Part shown: positions 1 to 49,566 of the stretch, in pieces
How the letters are laid out: each line of letters opens with the position of its first letter
Position numbering within the stretch: position 1 is the first letter of the stretch
From: Acinetobacter phage ZZ1
Strand: one strand, 5' to 3'
Length of the DNA stretch: 64,000 bases
Sequence record: NC_018087.3
Notes under the pieces: generated by a model
What the model saw: the letters and a program-made list of their open reading frames with translations, nothing else
What the model was told of the DNA's origin: nothing
Databases searched by the model: none
Translations under genes and position numbers: made by a program

Positions 1-2205
1 TTAAGTACCCAATAGTTTAACGATGTCATTTATCATATGATCATCGAGTGAATATTTGTTATCCAAAACATAATATATTGTAGGGTGTTTTTCGCGGAAA
101 GCGAGTAACTTTTTCTTATATGCATTTTCAGCCGCAATATGTCTTTCATTATATAAAACAATTGCGTCATTTAATCCTGGATAAGAAGACCCTCCAATTA
201 TACGAATATCTCTAACCTTTTTAAATAACCGATGCATTTCAACAGCTTCTTCACTGCGTGGAGCAGTTAATAAAGGTATAATAGATTTCACCAATTTTTC
301 ACTGCTTAACACATTTTGAATAAATGTTGATGTATTACTAAAAGAATATTTGCTTTCTGGAAAATCAGTTAGTAATTTAATCACAAGATCACACATATCT
401 TTGAATGCGCAAATTAAATTACTATTAGCAGATACTCGTTTATAAATTGATGGTCGAACCAAATACAATTTAGTAATACCTTGCTTCGCTAATATATCTC
501 GTACGGTATATTGACTGAGATTATTAATCGTACTAAAATTAAATGATTTTGCTGAAACATTATCGCGATAAAGACCCAACACATAACCATTTAATTCTTT
601 AATTTCATTACTAGTCAAATACAATAATTTAGTATCCCAAGATTTACGTTTTTCATTGTACTCCATAACTTCCGCATTTGGAGATGCAGGTCGTTTTTCA
701 GCCGGTGCAGTACGAGGTTTTTTAACGCCATATCCTGGAACTAATTTGCGAATATCTTCCATTTCACTTGATTTATACACATGTACAATATCATCGCCCA
801 TTACCGACTTAATTTCATTAATAACATTAAGACCGGATGGTGAATTTTGCACCACTAATACATGATCGTATTCTCTTAAAGCATCATCTTCTGTTGAATG
901 ACATAAACCTTTAATGGCAGCACGAGTTTTATGCATTGTTGTATCGCATATAATAATCCATGCCCGGCGGTTTGTATAGGTATAAATTCGATCTACTGAT
1001 GTTTCAGATACCTTTAAACGACGATATGAACTTGGCTCTACCAATTTACGCACCTTTGGTGAGTACTTATCGGCTATATAAACGGTTGAATGATTTACAA
1101 TTGCTTCGCGTAAATGAGGCATCTCAACTGATTTATTCAATTCTTTAATTGTCATGCCTAAAAATTTGATGCCTTTAGACTCAAGAATTGAATATTGTGA
1201 ACCTGGTAAATTATGCAACTTACGTAAAAGTTCACGACGATTTGTGATCTTTTGCAAAGAAGCAATATCTGCAGCCATTTGTTGCTCATTTAATGTGTTA
1301 ACACGTGTTCGCACATTTTTAAGAGTTCGTTCGTCAAATTGCAGTTCCTCTCGTGAAGGCTGCGGCATTAATTCACCTGATGCAAAGTGAATATATGTGA
1401 CGTCACTTTTTGTGCGTAACCAAGATGCATCAACGCCATCGACACCATTTAATGGATATACAATTGAGCCATAAATTGCATATACACCATTCGGTTCAAC
1501 ACTCATACGTTTATTTTCAATAATATGGCATTGACGAGTTGCAAACCAATCATCATTATAACCACGTAAATCATATAAAGATAATATATCCAGATTTACG
1601 CCTAAAACCTGATACGCCGATTTTGGGAATGGTCGTAAAATACGAACAAGTTCATTATGCCATTTGGGAATATCATCAATTTTACAAGGTACAGTTACTT
1701 CAATACCATCTTTATCCCCTTCTTCATATGGTCCAGAATAAACTTTAACCAATTGAGGTTCGCCGCCAGATAACATTGCATTATAAATTGTACAAATTCC
1801 AGCATGATATGACGCCACAGTAAAGGTATCTGTGTATGAGAATGGAGATTTTGCACCCAGTCCAAATGCACCCGTTTGTCTATCACAATCTGCTTTAGTT
1901 GATGCAAAGTATTGCGTGTAAATAGTGGTCATGTCTTCTTCATCTAGACCTGGACCAAAATCACGTACTACAAATCGAGGATCAAGCTCATTTGGTGCTT
2001 TAATTATAAAAGGTGTATCTTGATTATTTGCAATAATATGAGCATCATTTGCATTGCAAATAACTTCACGCACAACAGCACGAATTTTATGTTTATAGAT
2101 ACCACTTGACAAAATTTGGAATGCTTTTGCATTTGCCGCAATAGTAAAACTTTGTGCTTTACCTGCATTACCCAAAATAACTTCTTGTTCAACATGCATT
2201 TTCAT
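1..2205 (-). CDS. rIIA: rIIA-like membrane-associated protein with N-terminal GHKL (Bergerat-fold) ATPase domain
   Basis: 734 aa. N-box-like NANDAHII, G1 box DFGPGL and G2 box GAFGLGAKS near the N-terminus. Length and position next to the topoisomerase II gene match T4 rIIA. Positions 1-3 are the stop codon (tta), so the ORF is complete. Confidence 0.65.
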   Translation of the reverse strand: MKMHVEQEVILGNAGKAQSFTIAANAKAFQILSSGIYKHKIRAVVREVICNANDAHIIANNQDTPFIIKAPNELDPRFVVRDFGPGLDEEDMTTIYTQYFASTKADCDRQTGAFGLGAKSPFSYTDTFTVASYHAGICTIYNAMLSGGEPQLVKVYSGPYEEGDKDGIEVTVPCKIDDIPKWHNELVRILRPFPKSAYQVLGVNLDILSLYDLRGYNDDWFATRQCHIIENKRMSVEPNGVYAIYGSIVYPLNGVDGVDASWLRTKSDVTYIHFASGELMPQPSREELQFDERTLKNVRTRVNTLNEQQMAADIASLQKITNRRELLRKLHNLPGSQYSILESKGIKFLGMTIKELNKSVEMPHLREAIVNHSTVYIADKYSPKVRKLVEPSSYRRLKVSETSVDRIYTYTNRRAWIIICDTTMHKTRAAIKGLCHSTEDDALREYDHVLVVQNSPSGLNVINEIKSVMGDDIVHVYKSSEMEDIRKLVPGYGVKKPRTAPAEKRPASPNAEVMEYNEKRKSWDTKLLYLTSNEIKELNGYVLGLYRDNVSAKSFNFSTINNLSQYTVRDILAKQGITKLYLVRPSIYKRVSANSNLICAFKDMCDLVIKLLTDFPESKYSFSNTSTFIQNVLSSEKLVKSIIPLLTAPRSEEAVEMHRLFKKVRDIRIIGGSSYPGLNDAIVLYNERHIAAENAYKKKLLAFREKHPTIYYVLDNKYSLDDHMINDIVKLLGT

Positions 2206-2358
2206 ATTAAAATTCTCATTGAATACTATCTAAGTACAACATATACAATATCATAAGTTGTTTGATTTGTACAATCTTTAAGTCCTGCATTTGATTTGGA
2301 TCAAGAAATGTATTCAATTCTTGATCCAATGCAATTTCATAATCTGTATATGTTTTCA

Positions 2359-2565
2359 TTACAAACCATGGCGTTTAAGTAATTCAATTGCTTTACGTTC
2401 ATCTTCTTCGGATGCAACGCCTGCTTCTAAACGAGCCGCCATTTCCAGGTTTAAATTACGTTCAATTGCGGCTTCATGTACATCAAAAAAACGTTCAGTT
2501 GAATGATGTTGTCGTTTAATAGCTTCAGCAAGATTTTTTTTATTAATTACAGGTGGACAAATCAT
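2359..2565 (-). CDS. hypothetical protein (occupies the rIIA.1 position)
   Basis: 68-aa minus-strand ORF immediately upstream of rIIA. No recognisable motif. Confidence 0.4.
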   Translation of the reverse strand: MICPPVINKKNLAEAIKRQHHSTERFFDVHEAAIERNLNLEMAARLEAGVASEEDERKAIELLKRHGL

Positions 2566-2577
2566 TTCAATTTCCTC

Positions 2578-2904
2578 TTACATTGCAAGTAAAGTTACAG
2601 TAGCTTTACCATTTTCAAATTTAGATACTTCCATAATGAACTGTTCGCCGATGATTGATTTACATTCATATAAACCTTCACCTTTACGGATGTAGTTTAC
2701 ATTCCAGAATGCAATCATTGTATCATATTCTTCTTTAGAAGTTACATTAATTACAAAAGTAGACATACCTTTCTTATTAAAAACTTTCCAATCAATCTCA
2801 CCAATTTTACCTTCCATTTTGTTTAAAGTGAAAGATACATCAGAAAGAATAATGTTAGTCATTTTAATTTGAAAACGTTCTACTTTTTTAGTTAATGTAG
2901 CCAT
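2578..2904 (-). CDS. hypothetical protein
   Basis: 108-aa ORF, same strand and codon style as neighbours. A terminator hairpin lies just upstream at about 2981-3009. Confidence 0.5.
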   Translation of the reverse strand: MATLTKKVERFQIKMTNIILSDVSFTLNKMEGKIGEIDWKVFNKKGMSTFVINVTSKEEYDTMIAFWNVNYIRKGEGLYECKSIIGEQFIMEVSKFENGKATVTLLAM

Positions 2905-2980
2905 GATAATTTACTCAGTGTTTGTTCATTTGATGTAGTTATTATATAAGAATTTAATAAGCATGTAAACCCTTTAAATG

Positions 2981-3009
2981 AAAAAAGGTGCAAATAATGC
3001 ACCTTTTTA
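2981..3009 (-). terminator. rho-independent terminator (ggtgca-aataa-tgcacc hairpin plus T-run)
   Basis: aaaaaaggtgcaaataatgcacctttttatt. On the minus strand the hairpin is followed by TTTTT directly after the stop of the 3010..3639 gene. Confidence 0.6.
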
Positions 3010-3639
3010 TTAAAGTTTTAAAATAGTACCATATAAACGACGAACATATGTACGATAATCAACAAGAGTCTCTTCATCGACATAATATTGCGGAACATTT
3101 AACCAGTGTTCAGCACCCATATTATCAACAATATAAGGCACATTGAGTTGGTAATCATATTTGATATTATGAACATATCGACGACGTTGGCCGTCTGTAT
3201 AGTCTACAAGGATTTCAGCGCCAAGTAAAAATTTACAATCTCTAAAATATGGTGTTAGTTCAGGTCGTTCATATCTTTCATGTAAAACTACTTTTGCATT
3301 TACACCTTTTAAAACTAACATTTGACGACCATCATGTGGGTGTTCATCTACATAATAAGATTCGAGCCAACGATGTTCATTTGTAAATTCATCACCAAAA
3401 ATTAAATCCAACCAAGTTGTACCTGGGTTAAGTTTAACATTTGCACGAACGTTTACCGTAATAATATCAGTAAGATTATATTTATAATCAAGTTCAAAAA
3501 TTTGGCCGTCTTTATAATTATCTAAACGCATCCAACCCAAACCTACAATATTAAGTAGTGCAATATGAGTAAACTTTTCTGGGTTATAAACACCTGCATC
3601 CAAAATCAATTCACGTAAAGTATTCATATTAATCCTCAT
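3010..3639 (-). CDS. hypothetical protein (about 205 aa; true start probably the second ATG at 3627, preceded by TGAGGAT)
   Basis: ORF track 209 aa. The ATG at 3627 has a GAGGA Shine-Dalgarno; the first ATG has none. A weak HxD...H pattern (EHPHDG ... YVHNI) could fit a 2OG-Fe(II) oxygenase-like fold but is not convincing. Confidence 0.5.
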   Translation of the reverse strand: MRINMNTLRELILDAGVYNPEKFTHIALLNIVGLGWMRLDNYKDGQIFELDYKYNLTDIITVNVRANVKLNPGTTWLDLIFGDEFTNEHRWLESYYVDEHPHDGRQMLVLKGVNAKVVLHERYERPELTPYFRDCKFLLGAEILVDYTDGQRRRYVHNIKYDYQLNVPYIVDNMGAEHWLNVPQYYVDEETLVDYRTYVRRLYGTILKL

Positions 3640-3754
3640 TTAAATGCTTTTTAAACTTTTCTTTTCTGTCATATTTTGACTTGTCTTTTACAACCTGCAT
3701 CTTAAATGCAGGTGTTCTAACAGCTTTTGCAACTGGATTACGTTTATTTCTCAT
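3629..3754 (-). CDS. small highly basic protein (41 aa), below the ORF-track cutoff
   Basis: Manual translation gives MRNKRNPVAKAVRTPAFKMQVVKDKSKYDRKEKFKKHLNED. Its ATG (3754-3752) overlaps the TGA of the upstream gene (3753-3751) as ATGA. Its TAA sits beside the next gene start as TAATATG. Confidence 0.35.
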   Translation of the reverse strand: MRNKRNPVAKAVRTPAFKMQVVKDKSKYDRKEKFKKHLNED

Positions 3755-3990
3755 TTCTTCTCCTTGTATGATTGATACAATCGATATGGCGTCATGAGAC
3801 CAATAAGTAAATAAATTAGTAGATATACTAATGAAGAAAATAGCAATCCTATAACTGGCATTTGACCAATAAAATCGGTTTTGTTTGGACCGAATTTATG
3901 ATCATGATGACCTTCATTAACGTATCGATTCCAACTAAATGTACCTTTCAAATTTGTCTTAACAATTTTAATTAACTTTTTCATTTCCAT
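3751..3990 (-). CDS. small membrane protein (one transmembrane segment)
   Basis: 79 aa with hydrophobic stretch MPVIGLLFSSLVYLLIYLLIGLM. Confidence 0.45.
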   Translation of the reverse strand: MEMKKLIKIVKTNLKGTFSWNRYVNEGHHDHKFGPNKTDFIGQMPVIGLLFSSLVYLLIYLLIGLMTPYRLYQSYKEKK

Positions 3991-5249
3991 AACTCCAAAT
4001 ATTTGGTTTCTAAATCTTCTGGCACAAAGAAATGGCTTGCAAAAAATGCGTCCATACCTGTGACAAGATTTCGATCTTCACGAATAGACATACCACATGC
4101 TTTGTCACCAATAATCCATGAGCCAATGATCGGATAATATCCATCGTGCGGTTGAATTTCATGCCATTGTTGGTACATATAGCCCCAATGATCATATTCA
4201 GGTACTTTGTGAGAACCCGGAGCCAAATGACTAAGCTCTTCGCCAGAACAAAAATGCGAACGATAGATGTTTGAACCTTCGCGGCCATGAATTGCTTTCT
4301 TAGCATATTGACCCGATTTTGGATGATGATTCCCATCAAAACTCGCCAATAAATTAGGGTGATTAGGGAACATTTCCCATAACTTAATAAGCATTGCTTT
4401 GTTTGAAAGCAGCATTTTCCATGCGGGTTCCATCCAACGAGTGTTAGTACAGTCAAGAATGTCAGAACCAAATTTCTCTTCAGTCATCCATTCCCAAGGA
4501 TAAAGTTTAAAACAATTTTTGATCTCTTGGTCTTGAAGATCGATAAACGATTTAGTTTCAGGGCCTGTGCCAATACGTTCTTTCAAAAGACCAATATCTT
4601 GCATTTGCAATTCTTTAACAGATAAACCAGCACGAAGTGCAGAATCCATCAAATAAACTAAATTACCAAAGTCTTCATGACGGAATCCACCGCTTGATGC
4701 AAAATGAACTAATTCGCCTGGTTTAAATCGTTCCTGCCAAACTTCTTGAAGAGTTTCATCAATAAGATTATATTGAATACGCAGATCATCTGGATAATCA
4801 CGACCGTCTGGTAATTTTTGCATACTTTCAATATAATTCCATTGTGCTACAGAACATTCAAGAATTGAAACTGGAGTGTCGCCATTATACTCAAACATTT
4901 TTAATGAGTCATCAGAGCCAAAAGCAAGATCGAAACGTCCATATAATGATTTATCACCACGATTCCAAGATTGTTCAATTAAAGGAATCGAATTTTCATC
5001 CAAATTGAAGTACTCAGGATAATCACCAGATTTGATCATTTGTTCTACCATTGCATAAGACATATCGTGTAAGTCTTGTGATGCAGCTTGAATACGGTCA
5101 ATTTCACTTTCTGACATTCCATATACAACGCCTTCTTGCCAATATGGTGCAGCATCAGGTCCAGAAGGGGCATTCCAATAATTGAAGCCAATTCCCTCTA
5201 AAAGTTCAATGTGATTAGGACGGATTTCGAAATTGCTATGGCGTTTCAT
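3981..5249 (-). CDS. glutathionylspermidine synthetase-like (GspS/YgiC/YjfC family) ATP-grasp protein
   Basis: 422 aa. The motifs RFDLAFGSDD...FEYNGDTP and the overall length are characteristic of the stand-alone synthetase (pre-ATP-grasp plus ATP-grasp) family. Confidence 0.55.
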   Translation of the reverse strand: MKRHSNFEIRPNHIELLEGIGFNYWNAPSGPDAAPYWQEGVVYGMSESEIDRIQAASQDLHDMSYAMVEQMIKSGDYPEYFNLDENSIPLIEQSWNRGDKSLYGRFDLAFGSDDSLKMFEYNGDTPVSILECSVAQWNYIESMQKLPDGRDYPDDLRIQYNLIDETLQEVWQERFKPGELVHFASSGGFRHEDFGNLVYLMDSALRAGLSVKELQMQDIGLLKERIGTGPETKSFIDLQDQEIKNCFKLYPWEWMTEEKFGSDILDCTNTRWMEPAWKMLLSNKAMLIKLWEMFPNHPNLLASFDGNHHPKSGQYAKKAIHGREGSNIYRSHFCSGEELSHLAPGSHKVPEYDHWGYMYQQWHEIQPHDGYYPIIGSWIIGDKACGMSIREDRNLVTGMDAFFASHFFVPEDLETKYLELWK

Positions 5250-6851: not shown

Positions 6852-6898
6852 TTTGATTTGCTCATGTTATTTGGTATGTTCATATAATAATAAAAAAT

Positions 6899-6920
6899 CC
6901 AGGCTATGTACATAGCCTGG
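6899..6920 (-). terminator. palindromic terminator hairpin CCAGGCTATGTACATAGCCTGG (member of a repeated hairpin family)
   Basis: Perfect 22-nt palindrome, flanked by A6 upstream and T-run downstream on the minus strand, directly after the rnlB stop at 6936. Confidence 0.65.
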
Positions 6921-6935
6921 ACAAAAATATTTTAA

Positions 6936-8604: not shown

Positions 8605-9044
8605 TTTTCGCCTCCAGGTTTTTGTGGTTTTGGCGTACCGCGCACAACTAATCCAATTACTGGTGTATTAGCATTAGTTGTTACATTGATACCTCGGGTA
8701 AAACGAATACAATAAACAACTTCAGCATCTAATATATTTGCAACACTATCACTACCTGTCGTTAAACTACCCATCCAGCTTTTAACCGAAACAAATTCGC
8801 CCATGTCATTTACATATGTTGGGTCATCAACAAATTTAATGCCTGACGCTTTTAATTCAGCATATTTTGGAAATTCATTACGCATCTTAATAATCTGGTC
8901 TTTAAATTGACCCAAGTATTGATCATAGACTTTTTTACCGTCTCCAAACGTAATATAGCCGTTAATAGCATCATTAAATGTTTTAATGAGATTATTGTAA
9001 ATTTCGGCATTTAAAGGTACTGCACGTTTTACTACTTTAACCAT
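8580..9044 (-). CDS. hypothetical protein (paralogous to 7992..8369)
   Basis: 154 aa. EIYNNLIKTFNDAINGY versus DVYNTFIKSFNDAIKLA in the paralog. Confidence 0.5.
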   Translation of the reverse strand: MVKVVKRAVPLNAEIYNNLIKTFNDAINGYITFGDGKKVYDQYLGQFKDQIIKMRNEFPKYAELKASGIKFVDDPTYVNDMGEFVSVKSWMGSLTTGSDSVANILDAEVVYCIRFTRGINVTTNANTPVIGLVVRGTPKPQKPGGEKCLNLMRN

Positions 9045-9065
9045 TTTAAATCTCCATAGTGGATG

Positions 9066-10892
9066 TCAAGAAGACATCCACTCTTTACGAAGTTCTGCAT
9101 TTTTACCTAACAACATTTCAAATTGTGTTTCCCATGATTCTGGTAATTTAACAACTTCGAAATATGGTTCGTTAATAACGCGTTCATATTCACTTTCTTC
9201 AAGTGAACCAAGTCCTTTGATATATCGACAAGTATAACCTTTAAGACTATCTTTATCGGCATCATATTCTTCTGATGTGTAATACCATTTTTGGTCTTTA
9301 CCCTTTTGACAAATCCAAACAGGTGTTTTTACAAATTTAATTCGGCCTTGTTCAAATAATTCAGGCCAATTACTGAAGAATGCAAGCAACGACGGGTAAA
9401 TTGAACCGGTACCATCAACATCGGCATCTGTCATAATCGCAACATTGCGATAATTAAGGCTATCAGCTTTTTCGCCAATAGTTAACCCCATAATCGCACA
9501 AATATCAAAGATTTCTTTATTCTTTAACATATCTGTTGCGGATAAGCCCCAGGTATTAAGAACTTTACCGCGTAACGGATATCCGCCATGTAATTCACGA
9601 TTACGTGTTGAAATTAAATAACCAATTGCAGAATCACCTTCTGTTAAAAACAGAGTTGTTTCTTTTTGATCATTACCATAACCATTTGCTTTAATATGCT
9701 TAGATACTTTGGCTTTAGCAGCAGCTTTATTTGCTTTGGTTTCTGCAGCCTTTTCTGCGGCAAGCTTACGTGCAAGAACAGCTTCAATAATTGGCATTAA
9801 AATATCTTCATTTGCCATAAACTGCTTAGCAATTTTCTTGATATCAATATCAATATGAGATTTAACTTCACCCGCCGGAGATGTTAAACGTTCTTTAGTT
9901 TGTGAATCAAACCGTAAATTCTTCATATCTTTTAAGAATAATAATACGGTTACACATTCTTTAATTCTGGCCTTATTAACATCAATTTTATATTTGCGTT
10001 TAATTGATGGGATAAGTTCATTTGCCAATTCATCCATTACATAATCAAGATGTGAACCACCCACTTTTGTATGAATAGCATTTACATATGATAAGTGACG
10101 GAATCCATCTTCCGAACGACCAATTGCAAATTGCACATTATCAGTTTCTGCTGTAATCGCAGATTCATCATATTGTTTTGCATATTTTTTAAAATTACCT
10201 TGAACTTTTTTACCATTAAATTTAAATTCAATTTCAGGGTAAACAACAGCCAATGTTTGCATTTGATCTTCAATAATTTGAACAATTACATCATCGATCG
10301 CATCGCATTCAAAATGACTAAAGTCTGGGGTAAATTTAACTTCAGTACCCTGCGTTTGTTTTGCATATACTTTTTGTGTCCAATCAATATTGTCCATATT
10401 ATTGACACAATGAACAATTAATGTTTGTTCCCCATCACATGTTGTACCAATAAATTCTTTTGAAAAAATATTAGTTAAAGATGACCCAACACCATTCATG
10501 CCTGAAGTTTTACGTTCAGAATCATCACCAAAATTACCACCGGCTTTTGTGCGTGTCCATGCTGCTACAGCACCAGGAATTTCTGTACCTTCGGGCGTTG
10601 TAATCATTGCTTGTGGAATACCACGTCCATTATCTGTTACAGTTACCCAATTATCTTTAATTGTGACTGCGATTTTATTTGCGTATTGGAAATTAGTACG
10701 AACCGCTTCATCAATTGAGTTATCACGAATTTCTTCAATTAATTTTACAATTGCCGGAACATATTTTAATTTTGTAAATTTACCAAATAAGAATCGATCA
10801 TATTCTTCATTTGAGGTAGAACCTACATACATACCAGGTCGTTTTAAGACGTGCTCTTTATCAGATAACATCTTAATTTCATTCTTGATCAT
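9066..10892 (-). CDS. 39: DNA topoisomerase II large subunit (T4 gp39 and gp60 fused, GyrB-like)
   Basis: 608 aa. GHKL ATPase motifs (ERKTSGMNGVGSSLTN) and Toprim motifs (LFLTEGDSA, IMTDADVDG). A single continuous ORF, as in most T4 relatives other than T4 itself. Confidence 0.85.
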   Translation of the reverse strand: MIKNEIKMLSDKEHVLKRPGMYVGSTSNEEYDRFLFGKFTKLKYVPAIVKLIEEIRDNSIDEAVRTNFQYANKIAVTIKDNWVTVTDNGRGIPQAMITTPEGTEIPGAVAAWTRTKAGGNFGDDSERKTSGMNGVGSSLTNIFSKEFIGTTCDGEQTLIVHCVNNMDNIDWTQKVYAKQTQGTEVKFTPDFSHFECDAIDDVIVQIIEDQMQTLAVVYPEIEFKFNGKKVQGNFKKYAKQYDESAITAETDNVQFAIGRSEDGFRHLSYVNAIHTKVGGSHLDYVMDELANELIPSIKRKYKIDVNKARIKECVTVLLFLKDMKNLRFDSQTKERLTSPAGEVKSHIDIDIKKIAKQFMANEDILMPIIEAVLARKLAAEKAAETKANKAAAKAKVSKHIKANGYGNDQKETTLFLTEGDSAIGYLISTRNRELHGGYPLRGKVLNTWGLSATDMLKNKEIFDICAIMGLTIGEKADSLNYRNVAIMTDADVDGTGSIYPSLLAFFSNWPELFEQGRIKFVKTPVWICQKGKDQKWYYTSEEYDADKDSLKGYTCRYIKGLGSLEESEYERVINEPYFEVVKLPESWETQFEMLLGKNAELRKEWMSS

Positions 10893-12352: not shown

Positions 12353-12384
12353 AAAAAAGGCCGTATGTAAACGGCCTTTTTATT
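12353..12384 (-). terminator. rho-independent terminator (ggccgt-atgtaa-acggcc plus T-run)
   Basis: aaaaaaggccgtatgtaaacggcctttttatt, immediately after the dexA stop at 12383. Confidence 0.6.
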
Positions 12385-22748: not shown

Positions 22749-22849
22749 GATAATTTACTCACATTATGTTGATTTGATAAGATCATTTATACACTTTGTG
22801 TTAATTATATAATCATTAACACAAAGTGTAAATTATTTTAAAGACTTTT

Positions 22850-24404: not shown

Positions 24405-24821
24405 TTATTTCAAAAATGTATTGAATCGTTTGATATGATCTTCTGCATCATCAATTGTATCAAATGGTTCATAATTAAGAGTATGATCATCAAAACGAAT
24501 TCCATCGCTAGTTGTAGTACATCCGACAATCATATAATACCAATCATCAAGATGTGATACTGAATAAATCACATAGCTGTTAATTACAGGTTTACCGTCA
24601 CGAGCGTCTGCCGTAATTTTAGTAATATGATTTTCAGCAATATGACGAAGGGCAATAAGAGGGAAATGTTGTTTTAAAGCAGTAAGCAATTCTTGGTTTG
24701 TTGGAACATTGATAGTTAATGATTTCATAATATTTTCCTCAAGTGTATCAGTGTATCTGATGTAATCATTATAAACCAGGTTAAAAATAAAGTAAACTGT
24801 TAAATGAAAAAAGGCGCTCAT
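24405..24821 (-). CDS. hypothetical protein
   Basis: 138-aa ORF. Confidence 0.45.
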   Translation of the reverse strand: MSAFFHLTVYFIFNLVYNDYIRYTDTLEENIMKSLTINVPTNQELLTALKQHFPLIALRHIAENHITKITADARDGKPVINSYVIYSVSHLDDWYYMIVGCTTTSDGIRFDDHTLNYEPFDTIDDAEDHIKRFNTFLK

Positions 24822-35447: not shown

Positions 35448-35493
35448 TTCAATTTACTCATCATTAATTGATATAATCTATAATACTAAAAAA

Positions 35494-35517
35494 CCAGGGT
35501 TATGTACATAACCCTGG
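35494..35517 (-). terminator. palindromic terminator hairpin CCAGGGTTATGTACATAACCCTGG
   Basis: Perfect 24-nt palindrome flanked by A6 and T-rich sequence, after the stop at 35527. Confidence 0.6.
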
Positions 35518-35526
35518 TCCTTATTT

Positions 35527-42983: not shown

Positions 42984-43306
42984 AATTTTTTCTCCCGAGC
43001 ATCTACATGGATGATACGGATATTATTTGCATCGGGATATACTTCCCAACGATAGTTTTCCCAATTTTCAAGAAGTACATTATCAATTTTTGCAACGCCC
43101 ATATATCCTTGGTATGCATCCCAACAAGTTTTATCTTTAATTGGTTCATCGGAACTAAACACTGCGATTGAACCATCCTTGTCGATTGCAAGCCATTTTG
43201 CATTCTTTGGTATATAAATTGTATGATCAATGCCTTCAGGCGACCATTCAGTTTTTAATCGAAGAATAACTTGAGGCGGAGTATATAGATTTTTAAAAAT
43301 TGCCAT
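42980..43306 (-). CDS. hypothetical protein (paralogous to 22440..22748)
   Basis: 108-aa ORF. Confidence 0.45.
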   Translation of the reverse strand: MAIFKNLYTPPQVILRLKTEWSPEGIDHTIYIPKNAKWLAIDKDGSIAVFSSDEPIKDKTCWDAYQGYMGVAKIDNVLLENWENYRWEVYPDANNIRIIHVDAREKKL

Positions 43307-43352
43307 AATAAAATTCTCAAATTTGTATCTTGAATATAATATTACTAAAAAT

Positions 43353-43376
43353 CCAGGACTATGTACATAGTCCTGG
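43353..43376 (-). terminator. palindromic terminator hairpin CCAGGACTATGTACATAGTCCTGG
   Basis: Perfect 24-nt palindrome flanked by an A-run and T-rich sequence, after the stop at 43387. Confidence 0.6.
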
Positions 43377-43386
43377 ATAATTTATT

Positions 43387-43698
43387 TCAACTTTTTTCTA
43401 TGAATCGTATTTTATACTCTTCACAAATTTTATCCGCCGTATTAAAAGCTTGTGTTGGAGTAGAACCATCTTTTAATCTACTTAATACGGATGTTAACCA
43501 TATCGGGCCCAAATCAGGATGTTCTCGTTTAGGCTTGTTAATAGAATCAAACTCTTTTGCTCGACGCTTTGCATCATAAACCTGAGCATCCGATACAATC
43601 ATAGTAGTTCTACATTTTCGACAACGGACTTGCGGAGGATTACTCAACAAGACCGAATTGTAGTTAAAATCATGAACACATGTTTCTTGATTTGCCAT
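43387..43698 (-). CDS. hypothetical zinc-ribbon protein (CxxxxxxC...CRKC)
   Basis: 103 aa. 4-nt overlap with the upstream polymerase ORF. Confidence 0.45.
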   Translation of the reverse strand: MANQETCVHDFNYNSVLLSNPPQVRCRKCRTTMIVSDAQVYDAKRRAKEFDSINKPKREHPDLGPIWLTSVLSRLKDGSTPTQAFNTADKICEEYKIRFIEKS

Positions 43699-43700
43699 AA

Positions 43701-44885
43701 TTAGAATCCAAAAATATCTTCAAGCGATGCCCGCTTTTCAAATTTAAGCCCTGCTGCGTCACTCATTGCCTCTAGAGGTTTTTTGAATGATTTCGCAAAC
43801 ATTTCTGCCGTATCAATATGACGTAAAACATCATCTCGAATTTCTTTTGGTAAATCATTACCAGACGGCCAAGCCATAACTTTTTCACCAAATGGATTAC
43901 CCTGTTTGAGTGGGATAACCATAACTTTTTCGCCTTCCATAATATCAGGAAGACCTTGGAATTTTTTAATTGCTCGTTTATATGCAAGTACACCACGAAT
44001 ATGACCAGGACATTTTAATCCAGGGAATCCTTTATCGTCATATTTTGCAATATTGTTTGCTGCTGATACTTTAGCAACCACCTTATAATCCAATTTACGG
44101 AATTCTGCATCAAATTCCTTATAATATTCTTGTAAAGATGATTCACCTTCTTGTAACATACGACGAACAGCTTCATATAATGCATCTTTAACCGCTTTTG
44201 GTGTAGATGATTTTTGTGTTTCCAGCCCCATGATTTTTAAATATGGTTCTTTAAAACGCACGCCTTCCATGTCGTATACATTTAATGCATAACGTTTCTT
44301 CGCGGTCCAGAATGCACCAATACCGTCAGAACCTAATGGTGGGCATGCAATTGCTTCGCGGTCCATAAACATTAATTGTTCATAATTGTTTAAGTATTCG
44401 CACATTTCAGCAAAGCCTGCATTAATAACAGGTTCGATCTTTTTAGATGCAACAGCATCCAAGAAATCTACAAGTTGTTCAGTTGTTGTAAATCGGTCCA
44501 ACCCAACCTTTTCAATCAATGGTGATAGTTCAAGATATAATGAATCAGTATCACCATAAATGACATATGCATGATTTGTAGTACCACACATCTCATTCAA
44601 ATATGCGTTAATCTTTCGTTCGGTCCATTGTAATACAAGTTGACCAAAAATAGTAATAGCTTCTGCATTTCGAAGATCATAAAAGCGGAACCAAATATTA
44701 CCCAATGCACCATAAAGTGAGTTAATCAATAATTTACGGTTAATCTGATTCGTGTCACATAATGTAATATAGTCTTCGCATTGGTCTTCTAACGCAATAA
44801 GTTCTTCTTGCGAAAGTGTCTGCAAATATGCAATTTCTTCTTCTGTAAAGTCCCGGCTAAAGTCAAGAACCATATCATACTCCAA
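43701..44885 (-). CDS. 43: DNA polymerase (family B, T4 gp43) C-terminal portion, 43B
   Basis: 394 aa. Motif B KLLINSLYGALG, motif C YGDTDS and the C-terminal ...ASLEDIFGF are collinear with T4 gp43 residues from about 490 to the end. Confidence 0.85.
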   Translation of the reverse strand: MEYDMVLDFSRDFTEEEIAYLQTLSQEELIALEDQCEDYITLCDTNQINRKLLINSLYGALGNIWFRFYDLRNAEAITIFGQLVLQWTERKINAYLNEMCGTTNHAYVIYGDTDSLYLELSPLIEKVGLDRFTTTEQLVDFLDAVASKKIEPVINAGFAEMCEYLNNYEQLMFMDREAIACPPLGSDGIGAFWTAKKRYALNVYDMEGVRFKEPYLKIMGLETQKSSTPKAVKDALYEAVRRMLQEGESSLQEYYKEFDAEFRKLDYKVVAKVSAANNIAKYDDKGFPGLKCPGHIRGVLAYKRAIKKFQGLPDIMEGEKVMVIPLKQGNPFGEKVMAWPSGNDLPKEIRDDVLRHIDTAEMFAKSFKKPLEAMSDAAGLKFEKRASLEDIFGF

Positions 44886-44930
44886 TATAAGGGTTTAAAT
44901 TATTATACAATTAATATAAAAATAAGCGCT

Positions 44931-45170
44931 TTAATCATCATCTCGTGGGTTAATGGTATAAGTTAAACCAATGTAGCCTACAACTTCATCAGGTAAATCA
45001 ATGAATAAAATCTTTGCAACTTCAATTAGTTCATTGATTTTTAGTTTAGCAATATTCATGTCATCAGAATAATCACCACTTGAATAAGTATTAGAATAAT
45101 CGGCATATGTATAATCATACACGTGCTTTTCTAAACGCTTAATAAAATTATCATGTTGAGATTTAGTCAT
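44931..45170 (-). CDS. hypothetical protein (inside the gp43 split)
   Basis: 79-aa ORF. Confidence 0.4.
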   Translation of the reverse strand: MTKSQHDNFIKRLEKHVYDYTYADYSNTYSSGDYSDDMNIAKLKINELIEVAKILFIDLPDEVVGYIGLTYTINPRDDD

Positions 45171-45212
45171 ATGTACCTCAAAAATAAAAAGAAGGCTTAA
45201 AGCCTTCTTTAG

Positions 45213-45593
45213 TTAAATTGATAACATCCTATTATTCAGAACAATGCGAATTACCTTATCGACGGTTATACTGTTTCTTAGTGATGCATTGGCTGAAATT
45301 TTACTTAGGCCTTCATGTGCCAAATAAAATAAAAGTTTATTTGGGTCTGCATCATAATGAACAACATGATCTAATTTGGGTTCCCACTTTTCCTTTTTAA
45401 CAAGATGTACTGTAAAATCCGTTGAAAACGGATTTTTACGTATTTGATCCATTAAATTATTAATAACATCATTTAGAATTGCTTCAAATGTCTTCTCATA
45501 TTGAGAGATTTGTTTACGAGCTTCGTCGCATATAAATTGATCTAAAGTTGTCATTAAATATTCCATATAAAAAGTGGCCAGTAATTTGACCAC
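45213..45593 (-). CDS. hypothetical protein (inside the gp43 split)
   Basis: 126-aa ORF. Confidence 0.45.
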   Translation of the reverse strand: MVKLLATFYMEYLMTTLDQFICDEARKQISQYEKTFEAILNDVINNLMDQIRKNPFSTDFTVHLVKKEKWEPKLDHVVHYDADPNKLLFYLAHEGLSKISANASLRNSITVDKVIRIVLNNRMLSI

Positions 45594-45603
45594 TTATATA
45601 TAT

Positions 45604-45804
45604 TTAGAACATTGCGTTTACAGTTTGAGACCCCGCTTCAAATGGATTTTTAAACATTACACAACCACATAAAAACCCAGCCAGATATAATAATGGGATA
45701 CAAAACAATAATCCAAATAAAATACGCCAAGCCAGAGGTGCTTTTTCGCTAAATCCTTCAGCATCTTCCCATGCATTTTTAATTTGAAATAAAATATCAG
45801 ACAT
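45604..45804 (-). CDS. small membrane protein (inside the gp43 split)
   Basis: 66-aa ORF with a hydrophobic core. Confidence 0.4.
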   Translation of the reverse strand: MSDILFQIKNAWEDAEGFSEKAPLAWRILFGLLFCIPLLYLAGFLCGCVMFKNPFEAGSQTVNAMF

Positions 45805-46154
45805 TATATTACTCCTACCAAATAATTTAATATATGTAGTGTCGGTGTAATTCGTAAATCAGATTGATATGATTGCATTGCCATAGTATGAACATATTCA
45901 ACTGTTGAATTATGTGTACAACGAGCGTTTAATGTTGTTTCAATATTTTTACGAACTTGATCCACAGTATTAAAATATGTTTTCGGCCTTGGCAAATTTA
46001 AGGCTTTTAAAATTGCGGGTTGCCAATTAACAGAGAAGCCTTGTGGCTTCTCTTGAATAATAAACAAATGTGTTTCTAAACGCTCAAACACTTCATTTGT
46101 TTGACTAGATTTCATAACGTTTAACCACCATATCGTAACGAGGATGTTTTGCAC
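45804..46154 (-). CDS. hypothetical protein (inside the gp43 split)
   Basis: 116-aa ORF. Confidence 0.45.
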   Translation of the reverse strand: MQNILVTIWWLNVMKSSQTNEVFERLETHLFIIQEKPQGFSVNWQPAILKALNLPRPKTYFNTVDQVRKNIETTLNARCTHNSTVEYVHTMAMQSYQSDLRITPTLHILNYLVGVI

Positions 46155-46428
46155 GTAATTCTGATTGAATTTTTACAAAACCATCAAAAATTTCATGTAA
46201 CAAAGGTACTGTAATTGCTTTATGACTTAATGTTTTAGCCAATTCTAAAATTGCATCGCGAATATCTTTACGAACATCATCAGCAAACTGGTTTATAAAC
46301 ATATCATCACAATCTAATAATGCATTACCGTCACGAATTATGCATAAGTATGGATATACATTAACACTTTGAACTTGTGAGTTATGTGAAATTACGCCAG
46401 CATCAAATTCAATAAAATTGGTTTTCAT
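46105..46428 (-). CDS. hypothetical protein (inside the gp43 split)
   Basis: 107-aa ORF. Confidence 0.45.
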   Translation of the reverse strand: MKTNFIEFDAGVISHNSQVQSVNVYPYLCIIRDGNALLDCDDMFINQFADDVRKDIRDAILELAKTLSHKAITVPLLHEIFDGFVKIQSELRAKHPRYDMVVKRYEI

Positions 46429-46455
46429 AACATTTTCCTCAAATACTTTAAAAGA

Positions 46456-46728
46456 TTAAGCAATAACTAATTTAGTTGCGATTGGCTCAAGTTCATCTGC
46501 TAAGGCCGCTAAGTTTAATGTTGTTACATCAACACCAATGTAATTATGGATAATACGTTCCATTTGTTGGATTTCATTTAAATTTGATTCGCGAATATAT
46601 TCGGGTACAACAAATTTAACTGAATCATTTGCAAATAAAACAGATACTTCACCCAAAGTAATTTTACCGTCAAGCGAACGTGTTGCGCGAGCATCTACAA
46701 CTGCTTTACATTGATTTAATACTTTCAT
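46456..46728 (-). CDS. hypothetical protein (inside the gp43 split)
   Basis: 90-aa ORF. Confidence 0.45.
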   Translation of the reverse strand: MKVLNQCKAVVDARATRSLDGKITLGEVSVLFANDSVKFVVPEYIRESNLNEIQQMERIIHNYIGVDVTTLNLAALADELEPIATKLVIA

Positions 46729-46789
46729 TTCATTTACCTTGTTTGCTTGATGTGATCATTATATCACATCCCTGTGATAATGGAACCCT

Positions 46790-48298
46790 TTATTTAATTA
46801 ATTTTTTAATTATTTCTGCATTACGTTCTGCAGTCTTCATTTTCTTCTTCCATTCTTTACGTTGGAAGAAAACTTTAGCTGTTTCACGTGGAATCACACC
46901 TTGTTTGGTCTTATCATACATCATGCCACTCGGTGAACATGAATAACGATCAGAAGGTTTCTTAGCAATTCGTCCAATATAGTCTGCTAAAGGTGCCGGT
47001 GCAAATTGGCCAGCAATTGTTTCTGGACTAATATTAACTTGTCGAATAATCGATGGGTAAAGTGATGTTACGTCAAATGATACAACATACTTATATGCCC
47101 CAGGTTTTGGTTCTTTAACAAATGCACCTGCATATGGTTGTCGTACATTAGATTTGGTTTCCGGTAACACCAAATGATCAGGTTTCAATGAGTTAAAAAT
47201 AATCGCATCCCAGGTTTTTACTGGACTCATTACACCTTGAATATTCATTTTAGCATAATAACCCATCGAAATAGATAGATTAATAAATCCACGCTTCATA
47301 TCAATAGCTTGTACACAGTATACGTCTACAATGTTATATGAAATATAACGCTGATGATTTGTACTTCGTAATTTATTAATTGGACCATCATATGCCAATT
47401 TATTGATTTTTGCTTCATACTCTGCAATATAATCAAGTTTATATGTAGGCTGAGTAGTAAATGAGAACTTTTTATAAAGATCAATATAATCTAAAATTTG
47501 AACACCTGAAATACTAAAAATTTCAGCGTCACCATACATATTTGTAATTGTCTTAGATGTAATACGACCAAATGGACTCATTTTTTTCATATAAGAAACG
47601 CCGAGTACGTTCTTAATACGATTTAATAAGTACGGGATATCAAACCCTTCAATATTCCATCCTGTGAAAATAACGGGAGGTTTTTCTTCCCAAAGACGAA
47701 CATATTCTTGCAGCATTTCATGTTCAGTATCAAATGCGAAGTATACAACTTTATCTAAAATATGTTGTGGGACTTCATCACCACCTTCAGACTCAGGCAA
47801 AGCTGCTTTAATACGATCCCAGGGTTCAACACGCCCATCGCTAGAATTTAATAAATCAAATACATAATACTTATCATCTATCGAATCATAATGCGTAATA
47901 GCATCAATTTCGTATTTTGCAAATGCAGGCTCAGGGAACTCAGGTGCTGTTACCTCAATGTCACAATTGGCAACACGAATCGCTTTGCGGTCATATGTGA
48001 TATCTGAATTATATGTGTCAGAAATATAGGCTAGTTTAAAATCGTCCATGCCTAAAATTTCAACAATACCACGAGTCTTTTGGGCCCATTCTTTTGCTGC
48101 ACGAATAGATGTAAATTCTTTTGGTAAACACGGTTTACCATAAATGTCTTTATGCTTAGTTACAGTACCTTCTTTTGCATGAATAAACAATGTTGGTTCA
48201 TATGCAACTTCACGACGTTTTTCAATACCATCTTCAATATAACGTTCCTGAATTAAATCACCGGATTGTTCTACTACTAGATAAAAAGTATTACTCAT
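46790..48298 (-). CDS. 43: DNA polymerase (family B, T4 gp43) N-terminal portion, 43A (3'-5' exonuclease domain plus motif A)
   Basis: 502 aa. Exo motifs (FDIEVT...) and motif A FDVTSLYPSIIRQVNISPETIAGQF are nearly identical to T4 DLTSLYPSIIRQVNISPETIRGQF. The ORF ends at ...NAEIIKKLIK, corresponding to about T4 residue 475. Confidence 0.85.
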   Translation of the reverse strand: MSNTFYLVVEQSGDLIQERYIEDGIEKRREVAYEPTLFIHAKEGTVTKHKDIYGKPCLPKEFTSIRAAKEWAQKTRGIVEILGMDDFKLAYISDTYNSDITYDRKAIRVANCDIEVTAPEFPEPAFAKYEIDAITHYDSIDDKYYVFDLLNSSDGRVEPWDRIKAALPESEGGDEVPQHILDKVVYFAFDTEHEMLQEYVRLWEEKPPVIFTGWNIEGFDIPYLLNRIKNVLGVSYMKKMSPFGRITSKTITNMYGDAEIFSISGVQILDYIDLYKKFSFTTQPTYKLDYIAEYEAKINKLAYDGPINKLRSTNHQRYISYNIVDVYCVQAIDMKRGFINLSISMGYYAKMNIQGVMSPVKTWDAIIFNSLKPDHLVLPETKSNVRQPYAGAFVKEPKPGAYKYVVSFDVTSLYPSIIRQVNISPETIAGQFAPAPLADYIGRIAKKPSDRYSCSPSGMMYDKTKQGVIPRETAKVFFQRKEWKKKMKTAERNAEIIKKLIK

Positions 48299-48340
48299 AT
48301 TTTAATCCTCATCAAGATATACTAATTATAAAATAAAAAA

Positions 48341-48359
48341 GGGGAAAGCAACTTTCCCC
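48341..48359 (-). terminator. rho-independent terminator (ggggaaag-caa-ctttcccc)
   Basis: aaaaaaggggaaagcaactttcccctttt, after the stop at 48365. Confidence 0.55.
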
Positions 48360-48364
48360 TTTTA

Positions 48365-48598
48365 TTACTTGTCGCCTTGGACAACAGCTGTTTTTGTCAT
48401 TTCTTCTTGAGGTACAAATCCATTATCTGTTTTTACAAAACACCCACTAATTAATGAATATTTTGTGGTACGGCCTGTAATAGATTCATAACTGTTACAT
48501 TTAATATAGCCACTCACTGTATTGTATGTTAAGCCTACTACAACAATAACACAGACGATAATAACAGAGAATATGAGTTCAATTAAATTATTGCTCAT
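48365..48598 (-). CDS. small membrane protein
   Basis: 77 aa with one TM segment. Confidence 0.45.
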   Translation of the reverse strand: MSNNLIELIFSVIIVCVIVVVGLTYNTVSGYIKCNSYESITGRTTKYSLISGCFVKTDNGFVPQEEMTKTAVVQGDK

Positions 48599-48982
48599 TT
48601 ATGCACCTACAACATATTTTGATTTAAGAGTCCACTCGGCTTTCTGTGCAGCTTTAATAACACGAAAATTATTGGTAACTTCAATTTCAGGTGGCGCAAA
48701 TTCAACCTCAACAAGACCCCATGTTTCAAGTGTCTTAGCAATAGAAACAGTACGTTGAACATCTTCATCGCTAATATTAACTACTTTACCATCCAAGCGC
48801 ATCATATCTTTAAAGTGAACAATATAAAATTTAGGTTCACCTGTCGCAGGGTCTTGTTTTTTCAAGATATGACATGATTGATATAAAACTTTATCACGTT
48901 GATTTGCAATACCCATACGGGTTAAGGTTTCTTTTACTTTCAAAAAGTTTTCAGATTGTACAAGTTTAATAGGGATCATCAT
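48599..48982 (-). CDS. regA: translational repressor RegA
   Basis: 127 aa. FLKVKETLTRMGIANQRDKVLYQSCHILKK is nearly identical to T4 RegA FLKVKETLTRMGIANNKDKVLYQSCHILQK. Confidence 0.9.
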   Translation of the reverse strand: MMIPIKLVQSENFLKVKETLTRMGIANQRDKVLYQSCHILKKQDPATGEPKFYIVHFKDMMRLDGKVVNISDEDVQRTVSIAKTLETWGLVEVEFAPPEIEVTNNFRVIKAAQKAEWTLKSKYVVGA

Positions 48983-49566
48983 AGTAGTTTCAACTCTTTA
49001 AGTTCTTTGGGATTTTTGGTAATTGACTTTAAAAAGTCGTCTGTCGCTAATGCTTTAGCATCGCGTAATACTTCAGTTAACTTACCTTTATGCTCAAGTA
49101 ATTTTCGATAGTCATAAGCCGTATTTGCATTAACTTTATAATATTTCATTAAAAGCTGAATAATATATTTGTCTTTAAAACTCTCATCCAGCTTTACAGT
49201 TTTGCTAAATCTACGACCTTTTGGAATCAACATTGTCAAATAATTATGATGATGTTGATCACTAAGACCTTGTAATACCATATTGGACATATACACAGCA
49301 GGCATACATTCAATGTGTCGACTTAACATGTTGTCAATCATAAACTTTGAATAGTCCATATGCATTACAGACATTTCACGTTTATTTTGATTGATATTAT
49401 TTAAGATTTTAAACAAATCGGCTTCTGGCTTTTCTTTAAATTCGTCAGCAAGTTTTTTAACTGCATCCCAATCTTTATTCATCCAAGCAACTTCATGAGG
49501 ATTAAGTTGAACTTCATCCTCATCAAATAAACAAATCATACTCATTTTATCACTCCAATTATACAC
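48979..49566 (-). CDS. 62: clamp loader small subunit (T4 gp62)
   Basis: 195 aa. Position between regA and gene 44 and a size close to T4 gp62 (187 aa). Confidence 0.65.
   Translation of the reverse strand: MYNWSDKMSMICLFDEDEVQLNPHEVAWMNKDWDAVKKLADEFKEKPEADLFKILNNINQNKREMSVMHMDYSKFMIDNMLSRHIECMPAVYMSNMVLQGLSDQHHHNYLTMLIPKGRRFSKTVKLDESFKDKYIIQLLMKYYKVNANTAYDYRKLLEHKGKLTEVLRDAKALATDDFLKSITKNPKELKELKLL

Follow-up and report, generated by a model that had tools for sequence, protein, structure and literature searches.

The question raised by the 64,000-nucleotide stretch of Acinetobacter phage ZZ1 DNA analysed here (sequence record NC_018087.3; the whole stretch is referred to as the window) is how a phage of the T4 type makes its replicative DNA polymerase, gp43, when gene 43 is present as two open reading frames (ORFs), 43A and 43B, on the minus strand. 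The reading that best accounts for this locus, with a probability of roughly 0.93, is that of a natural bicistronic 43A/43B form of the T4-family replicative family B polymerase (PolB), in which the break in the gene falls at the fingertip. The split is real, but it is already known, being both published and annotated for the same species.

The ORF list of the window contains the two halves as minus-strand ORFs at 46790..48298 (502 amino acids, aa) and 43701..44885 (394 aa if a TTG start is used). In Pfam, the 43A ORF matches DNA_pol_B_exo1 and positions 18-144 of the DNA_pol_B profile, while the 43B ORF matches positions 146-236, and the two DNA_pol_B pieces are exactly contiguous on the profile. 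BLASTP aligns gp43A with residues 4-500 of T4 gp43 (63.9% identity) and gp43B with residues 517-898 (~60%). Similarly, phmmer searches against PDB chains place residues 4-501 of gp43A on T4 3-500 and RB69 3-502, and residues 3-390 of gp43B on T4 519-898 and RB69 about 516-903 (~60% identity). The stretch unrepresented between the halves comprises ~16 T4 residues or 12-14 RB69 residues, and a tblastn search of the whole window with T4 gp43 matched the 43A and 43B pieces only. These results confirm an earlier note on this DNA, which described a family B gp43 encoded as two ORFs broken between motifs A and B with about 15 T4 residues unaccounted for (16 by alignment). The collinearity of both ORFs with T4 gp43, for which the same note proposed an alignment, is evident from BLASTP as well as phmmer, but the T4 ranges it gave (about 1-475 and from about 490) were some 25 residues too low.

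Alignment of the joined halves with unsplit gp43 proteins (T4, RB69, two Klebsiella phages, one Vibrio phage and one Pseudomonas phage) places the junction at the tip of the fingers domain, between RB69 residues ~502 and 516. This is the variable tip between the two long fingers helices, with RB69 R482 and K486 on the 43A side and K560 on the 43B side, and the break falls in the same alignment column in phages PhT2, Kimel and Acj9. Mapping from RB69 assigns to gp43A the exonuclease residues D113, E115, D220 and D325, motif A residues D409 and Y414 and the triphosphate contacts R480 and K484, and to gp43B motif B residues K47, N51 and Y54 and motif C residues D108 and D110. Since all 13 RB69 reference residues for catalysis or deoxynucleoside triphosphate (dNTP) contact are conserved and are divided between the halves, the active site is composite. 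Furthermore, the ratios of nonsynonymous to synonymous substitution rates (dN/dS; Nei-Gojobori, against PhT2) are 0.145 for 43A and 0.114 for 43B over ~21% protein divergence, and both halves are thus kept by purifying selection.

Each cistron has its own start, stop and ribosome-binding site. 43A is preceded by a Shine-Dalgarno sequence GAGGA before ATG 48298 and ends at TAA 46792-46790. For 43B, the mechanically assigned start TTG 44885-44883 overlaps the Shine-Dalgarno sequence GGAG (Table 1), and ATG 44873 is preferred for this reason and because Henu6_gp146, the counterpart in Acinetobacter phage Henu6, is annotated from the equivalent ATG. Judged by these signals, 43B very probably begins at ATG 44873. 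Of the 394-aa 43B ORF with its own Met described in the earlier note, the independent start is retained, whereas the start at TTG 44885 is less likely than the ATG giving 390 aa. The Acinetobacter relatives compared likewise have GGAG a similarly short way upstream of their 43B ATG, and Aeromonas phage Aes151 has a Shine-Dalgarno-like gagggg there.

Table 1. Features of the gene 43 region of the window, and lengths of the 43A-43B interval in the window and in related phages
Feature	Position	Strand	Description
Terminator-like hairpin with T run	48337..48363	minus	12-bp hairpin in the gap separating 43A from the gene before it; 38 nt ahead of the 43A start
Gene 43A	46790..48298	minus	502 aa, ends ...NAEIIKKLIK; N-terminal domain, 3'-5' exonuclease, first palm part, ascending fingers helix
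Putative promoter and stem-loop element	46747..46786	minus	directly after the 43A stop; read from the sequence and from relatives
o1	46456..46728	minus	90 aa; phrog_21960, E=9e-43; first gene of the conserved intercistronic cassette
o2	46105..46428	minus	107 aa; good GAGGA Shine-Dalgarno; annotated in Henu6
o3	45804..46115	minus	103 aa (probable start); conserved cassette member
o4	45604..45804	minus	66 aa, predicted membrane protein; phrog_24434, E=1e-38; conserved cassette member
Terminator-like hairpin with T run	45572..45595	minus	closes the o1-o4 block
o5	45213..45566	minus	117 aa (probable start); annotated in Henu6; variable interval part
Terminator-like hairpin with T run	45188..45210	minus	between o5 and o6
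o6	44931..45170	minus	79 aa; good GAGG Shine-Dalgarno; variable interval part
-10-like TATAAT	44902..44907	minus	perfect; 28 nt upstream of the 43B start codon; no recognisable -35; candidate promoter element only
43B Shine-Dalgarno GGAG	44883-44880	minus	6 nt upstream of ATG 44873; read from the sequence
Gene 43B	43701..44873	minus	390 aa from the very probable start ATG 44873; descending fingers helix, second palm part, thumb, C-terminal tail ...SLEDIFGF
43A-43B interval, about 1.8 kb			Maestro, AbTZA1
43A-43B interval, 1.9 kb			window, Henu6
43A-43B interval, 2.0 kb			Kimel, KARL-1
43A-43B interval, 2.15 kb			PhT2
43A-43B interval, 2.4 kb			Acj9
43A-43B interval, 2.5 kb			Ac42
43A-43B interval, 2.9 kb			phage 133
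43A-43B interval, 3.0 kb			AM101, Apostate, AB1I1M-1
43A-43B interval, 4.0 kb			Acj61

Over the 6 kb used as query (43000-49000), the window shares 99.2% identity with Acinetobacter phages Henu6 and vB_AbaSt_W16 (W16), with identical gene content, and both phages belong to the species Zedzedvirus zz1 (Twarogvirinae, Straboviridae). gp43A is 100% identical to Henu6_gp152, and the GenBank record of Henu6 labels both this protein and the 43B counterpart 'split DNA polymerase'; the product of o1, the first ORF after 43A, is 100% identical to ZZ1p0101. The suggestion in the earlier note that the split may place the phage in the Aeromonas lineage is not upheld, as the phage is an Acinetobacter T4-like member of Zedzedvirus zz1. 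According to the ZZ1 genome paper, gene 43 of this phage was still split once doubtful split genes had been re-examined by polymerase chain reaction (PCR) (PMC4177764). Natural fingertip splits have been described for Acinetobacter phage 133 and Aeromonas phages 44RR, 31, 25 and 65 by Petrov et al. (2006, J Mol Biol 361:46; 2010, J Mol Biol 395:457) as cited in PMC3061061; the content of these two papers is taken second-hand from PMC3061061, PMC2988022 and PMC2839356. The gene 43 enzyme is likewise reported to be bicistronic in Aeromonas and Acinetobacter phages (PMC2839356).

In the proposed mechanism, separate start codons and Shine-Dalgarno sequences would direct translation of the two halves, gp43A and gp43B would associate non-covalently into one enzyme, and the dNTP site and the metal-binding site would be built from residues of both chains. 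In Aeromonas phage 25, the 43A and 43B products co-purify and show polymerase activity (Edgell et al., PMC2988022), and by analogy subunit assembly and polymerase activity may be expected for the ZZ1 pair.

As the earlier note observed, the 1.9 kb separating the halves contains six small ORFs, all on the minus strand (o1 to o6; 66-126 aa as mechanical ORFs), most of which carry a recognisable upstream Shine-Dalgarno sequence. Two of them, o3 and o5, are probably shorter in reality (Table 1) than their mechanical calls of 45804-46154 and 45213-45593. Comparison of o1-o6 with Pfam, NCBIfam and PHROGs returned only PHROG families of unknown function, with no match in these databases for o2 or o5, and no HNH or GIY-YIG homing endonuclease was detected in o1-o6 with the same three collections. 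A weak match of o3 to Pol III delta', scoring 17.8 bits where the cut-off is 456, was not accepted. No paralogy was detectable among o1, o2 and o3, and a tblastn comparison of o1-o6 with the MobE part of the AM101 interval gave no match. Protein homologue searches for the interval ORFs found only near-identical ZZ1-type proteins, hence shallow alignments, and the AlphaFold models are mediocre (predicted local distance difference test score, pLDDT, 73.8 for o3 and 64.7 for o1). Syntenic homologues of o1 (36-47% identity) lie directly after 43A in PhT2, Kimel, AM101, Maestro, AB1I1M-1, Acj9 and Acj61, and the dN/dS of o1 is 0.39. For o4, syntenic homologues are present in seven relatives (38-56% identity; dN/dS 0.20), of which that of Maestro is annotated as a transmembrane protein; o4 is absent from the annotation of the 99%-identical Henu6 record. 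o2 is weakly similar (23-27%, E about 1e-4 to 4e-3) to the ORF that occupies the corresponding position in the intervals of Lazarusvirus and AB1I1M-1. Among the intervals compared, o5 has homologues only in PhT2 (46%) and AB1I1M-1 (57%), and the sole homologue found for o6 is in the Acj61 interval (35%, E=6e-13). Judged by its gene content, the interval is a small variable gene island, in which an apparently old conserved block of o1, o3 and o4, probably with o2, is accompanied by the variable o5 and o6.

The 43A/43B arrangement is also present in Henu6, W16, PhT2, Kimel, AM101, Maestro, AB1I1M-1, Acj9, Acj61, Ac42, 133 and DLP2, with 'split DNA polymerase' or 43A/43B as the annotation in several of the records. 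In the other Twarogvirinae genera, 43A and 43B show 77-80% protein identity. The spacer between the cistrons is given as '2 bp (Aeromonas phage) to 3 Kb (Acinetobacter phage)' in a passage of PMC3061061. At the DNA level, the interval is matched over its full length only within the species (Henu6, W16), and six other records match ~270 bases at 67%. The genes o1, o3 and o4 keep their order in Hadassahvirus, Lazarusvirus, Acj9 and Acj61 (33-56% identity), and o3 also occurs in phage 133, while none of the interval proteins is held in common with Ac42 or the Aeromonas phages. The o5/o6 part is replaced elsewhere by other ORFs, by a MobE HNH endonuclease (AM101) or by a DNA-binding protein (Acj9, Ac42). 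The 3-kb interval of Lazarusvirus differs from the 2-kb version by an additional MobE-type HNH homing endonuclease gene, which lies on the opposite strand directly upstream of 43B (1663-2787 of the AM101 stretch), and the name-matched records Konradin (2.0 kb) and Konradin-v2 (3.0 kb) differ by ~1 kb in the interval. The Maestro GenBank record presents 43A and 43B as one 'join' coding sequence (383-4840 of the examined stretch) across five independent genes, as though the halves underwent splicing, which is an annotation oddity. The Lazarusvirus and Hadassahvirus intervals, but not that of the window, have a ~195-nt non-coding gap (8915-9110 of the examined Kimel stretch) containing a terminator-like hairpin, a TATAAT and a GC-rich segment of ~100 nt; this GC-rich leader has no Rfam match in Kimel, and its folding z-score of -1.0 is not unusual. 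For phage DLP2, a 31-kb inversion has been reported (PMC10051250), one breakpoint of which lies inside the 43A-43B interval (OP946502; 15000-20500 and 45500-51000 examined). The halves consequently lie 29 kb apart on opposite strands, with two ORFs staying with 43A and four going with 43B. If the DLP2 assembly is right, the halves cannot share a transcript there, and their independent expression would be possible.

The element that directly follows the 43A stop consists of a -35-like GTTCCA (46786-46781), a 17-nt spacer, the -10 sequence TATAAT (46763-46758) and ATCAA (46751-46747), with the stem arms GATGTGAT (46770-46763) and ATCACATC (46756-46749) forming an 8-bp inverted repeat that encloses the -10. 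The -10 is perfect and the -35 fits only three of six consensus positions. At the same place, relatives carry GTTTAC(A/T)-17-TATAAT within an 11-13-bp hairpin, and the short intercistronic sequences of the Aeromonas phages 44RR, 25 and Aes151 are made up of a closely similar hairpin, whose loop is -10-like, and the 43B Shine-Dalgarno sequence after it. In an alignment of six distinct versions from Acinetobacter and Aeromonas phages, 87% of the cells are paired compared to at most 49% when the partner columns are slid, and changes on both sides are seen in 7 of the 13 pairs. The covariation score of 0.426 compares with 0.206 for shuffles and was reached by none of 500 shuffles. A sigma-70 consensus scan of the region returned 31 promoter-like sites against 29.5 in shuffled sequence and hence no excess; the putative post-43A promoter was recognised solely through the comparison with relatives. 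In the window, the stem-loop lacks a T run, and terminator activity is doubtful.

Upstream of 43B, the TATAAT at 44907-44902 is not conserved and relatives carry other elements there, while a by-eye search for a MotA box or late-promoter motif upstream of 43B revealed nothing convincing. In T4, a hairpin upstream of gene 43 serves as the operator for translational autoregulation by gp43. The site in Maestro equivalent to the hairpin upstream of 43A in the window is annotated as a terminator. Elsewhere on the minus strand of the window, early-promoter-like GTTTAC-N18-TATAAT sequences, often followed by ATCAA, occur near 24797, 23268, 22833, 12372 and 2970, and the post-43A element, with its TATAAT and ATCAA, fits this promoter-like pattern of the phage. 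The element at 22833 lies inside a 16-bp hairpin and that at 12372 overlaps a terminator-like hairpin, both resembling the promoter-early stem-loop (PeSL) cassettes of T4-type phages (Arbiol et al. 2010, PMC2839356; Comeau et al. 2014, PMC4122927). The window also contains, at 6898-6921, 35493-35518 and 43351-43378, a palindrome family (CCAGG(N)nTATGTACATA(N)nCCTGG) whose members are near-perfect and show compensatory variation in the stem. These palindromes are probably intrinsic terminators, since each is followed by a T run on the minus strand. Their stem consensus GG..CTAT / ATAG..CC resembles the post-43A hairpin of relatives.

Several other explanations for the two ORFs have to be weighed against the bicistronic reading. 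A sequencing or assembly artefact, in which gene 43 would be continuous and the interval misplaced, has a precedent in the spurious split genes that the ZZ1 authors met in their first assembly, yet the same authors still report gene 43 as split after PCR correction (PMC4177764). Moreover, the identical arrangement occurs in the independently sequenced Henu6 and W16, all Twarogvirinae genomes examined have a homologous arrangement, the interval contains genes that are conserved and constrained, and a clean stop ends 43A while 43B has its own Shine-Dalgarno sequence and ATG. An artefact is therefore next to inconceivable, and an assembly error that closes the gap into one ORF, which the earlier note named as a possible refutation, is effectively refuted by the recurrence of the arrangement in all related genomes examined. 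It is also very improbable that the halves are joined into one polypeptide through a group I intron, trans-splicing, a split intein or ribosomal bypass. Translational bypass is used by T4 gene 60. A group I intron lies within 43B of the Aeromonas phages 25 and Aes151, and the Aes516 record (JN377905.1) annotates an 'intein-containing split DNA polymerase precursor'. However, an E-value-based Rfam scan of 43000-49000 returned no intron model and only three weak, unrelated hits, Pfam detected no Hint/intein domain in the eight proteins (both halves and the six ORFs), and gp43A and gp43B have no residues beyond the gp43 alignment at the junction, which leaves no room for intein halves. In addition, the interval is filled by the six same-strand ORFs, most with a Shine-Dalgarno sequence, and two terminator-like hairpins. 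The absence of a Hint domain, an intron model and surplus residues excludes splicing and bypass as far as sequence analysis can tell, in agreement with the earlier claim that no intein or single reading frame is possible. As no single frame, intein or intron joins the halves, the enzyme would have to assemble from two polypeptides. Taken from its annotation by itself, Aes516 suggests that some Aeromonas relatives may combine a split with an intein. Decay of one or both halves, with replication taken over by another polymerase, is hardly credible either: a broken essential gene is sometimes a pseudogene, with nothing specific here pointing that way, but no catalytic residue has been lost, both halves have a dN/dS of 0.11-0.15, and the halves are conserved across the Twarogvirinae genera examined. 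Furthermore, tblastn with T4 gp43 found no other PolB-like sequence in the window, and the annotations of relatives list only the split gene in this region. Some points do weigh against the bicistronic reading. The assembly of gp43A with gp43B is extrapolated from the Aeromonas phages, and two terminator-like hairpins stand between the putative post-43A promoter and 43B, before which only a TATAAT without a -35 is present; the transcription pattern of 43B is one that we infer. The separation of the halves in DLP2 could be an assembly artefact rather than a real recombination event, as a ~125-bp inverted repeat (93.6% identical), derived from the Kimel-type intergenic gap, is present at both junctions.

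Within the bicistronic reading, it has to be asked whether the Acinetobacter split arose separately from that of the Aeromonas phages, by convergent insertion into a tolerant, hypervariable fingertip. This is a tenable view, although not the one to which the evidence leans. The gp43 of the window is nearer to the unsplit proteins of T4, RB69 and the Klebsiella phages (61.5-63.2%) than to the split protein of Aes151 (53.4%), the fingertip is a known hotspot (PMC3061061), and most of the cassette genes, like the shared hairpin, are missing from phages 133 and Ac42. On the other hand, the Acinetobacter and Aeromonas lineages have the 43B start codon at the same alignment column, gp43B is 57% identical to that of Aes151 over its first 28 residues compared to 14-39% for unsplit relatives, and a hairpin with a -10-like loop and compensatory changes directly follows the 43A stop in both lineages. 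Taken together, the shared start column, the similarity over 28 residues and the shared hairpin favour a split fingertip that is of common origin or was transferred laterally. The hairpin shared with the Aeromonas phages falls short of strong proof of a single origin, since its stem consensus is dispersed in palindromes of the window; with this consensus present in terminator-like elements of the genome, the post-43A hairpins could be separate insertions of a common cassette type. In a more specific and rather speculative scenario, which is unlikely in its full form, there was a single event in which a PeSL-type promoter and stem-loop cassette landed in the fingertip, or was transferred with the fingertip segment, after which the gap became a landing pad for genes in Twarogvirinae, yet o1, o3 and o4 were kept across most of the subfamily. 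If this is true, the retained genes would be suggested to be functionally tied to the expression or assembly of the split polymerase.

In comparison with known systems, the 43A/43B genes of phages 133, 44RR2.8t, 25, 31 and 65 encode the same enzyme with the same fingertip break, the same 43B start column and separate translation signals for each half. Phage 133 has a multi-kb spacer, as in the window, with only o3 in common among the ORFs, whereas 44RR and 25 share with the window the promoter-like hairpin after the 43A stop. Unlike phage 25 (GIY-YIG), 50AhydR13PP (HNH) and AM101 (MobE), the window has no homing endonuclease in the interval, and unlike phages 25, Aes151 and JSE it has no group I intron in gene 43; its gp43A ends 9 residues earlier than that of Aes151. 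Split DNA polymerase genes are annotated in ZZ1, Henu6 and W16, which are of one species, and with the same break in the other Twarogvirinae phages PhT2, Kimel, KARL-1, AM101, Acj9, Acj61 and Ac42; the o1/o3/o4 block is syntenic in other genera, with spacers of 1.8-4.0 kb. PeSL-like sequences were noted by Arbiol et al. between g43A and g43B of 44RR and 25 (PMC2839356), and no description of PeSLs for Acinetobacter phages was found in the accessible literature. In its sequence features, the post-43A element resembles a PeSL, as it opens an interval of the kind that these cassettes border, with a candidate sigma-70-like early promoter and a stem-loop next to variable ORFs of mostly unknown function. 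It differs in its degenerate -35 (GTTCCA), in the stem-loop enclosing the -10 and in the lack of a T run. Outside the phages, the PolB of Methanothermobacter thermautotrophicus likewise functions as a non-covalent pair of fragments but is split in the palm, with the genes 85 kb apart (PMC3061061), whereas the split in the window is in the fingers. An engineered Pfu polymerase (Hansen et al. 2011) is also split in the fingers domain and consists of two non-covalently associated fragments, but this split lies within helix alpha-O and was made by a frameshift with coupled translation (PMC3061061), in contrast to the fingertip split into two separate cistrons found here.

What the present analysis adds to the published record is minor, namely the corrected 43B start, the unannotated o4, the conserved o1/o3/o4 block and the covarying promoter-hairpin shared with Aeromonas phages. 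These additions could guide annotation of, and experiments on, therapeutic Acinetobacter baumannii phages, all of which have the split arrangement. More broadly, the locus is a natural example of a family B replicative polymerase that tolerates a break at the fingertip with its active site spread over two chains, and the idea of a split with a shared active site has already been exploited in the engineered Pfu enzyme (PMC3061061).

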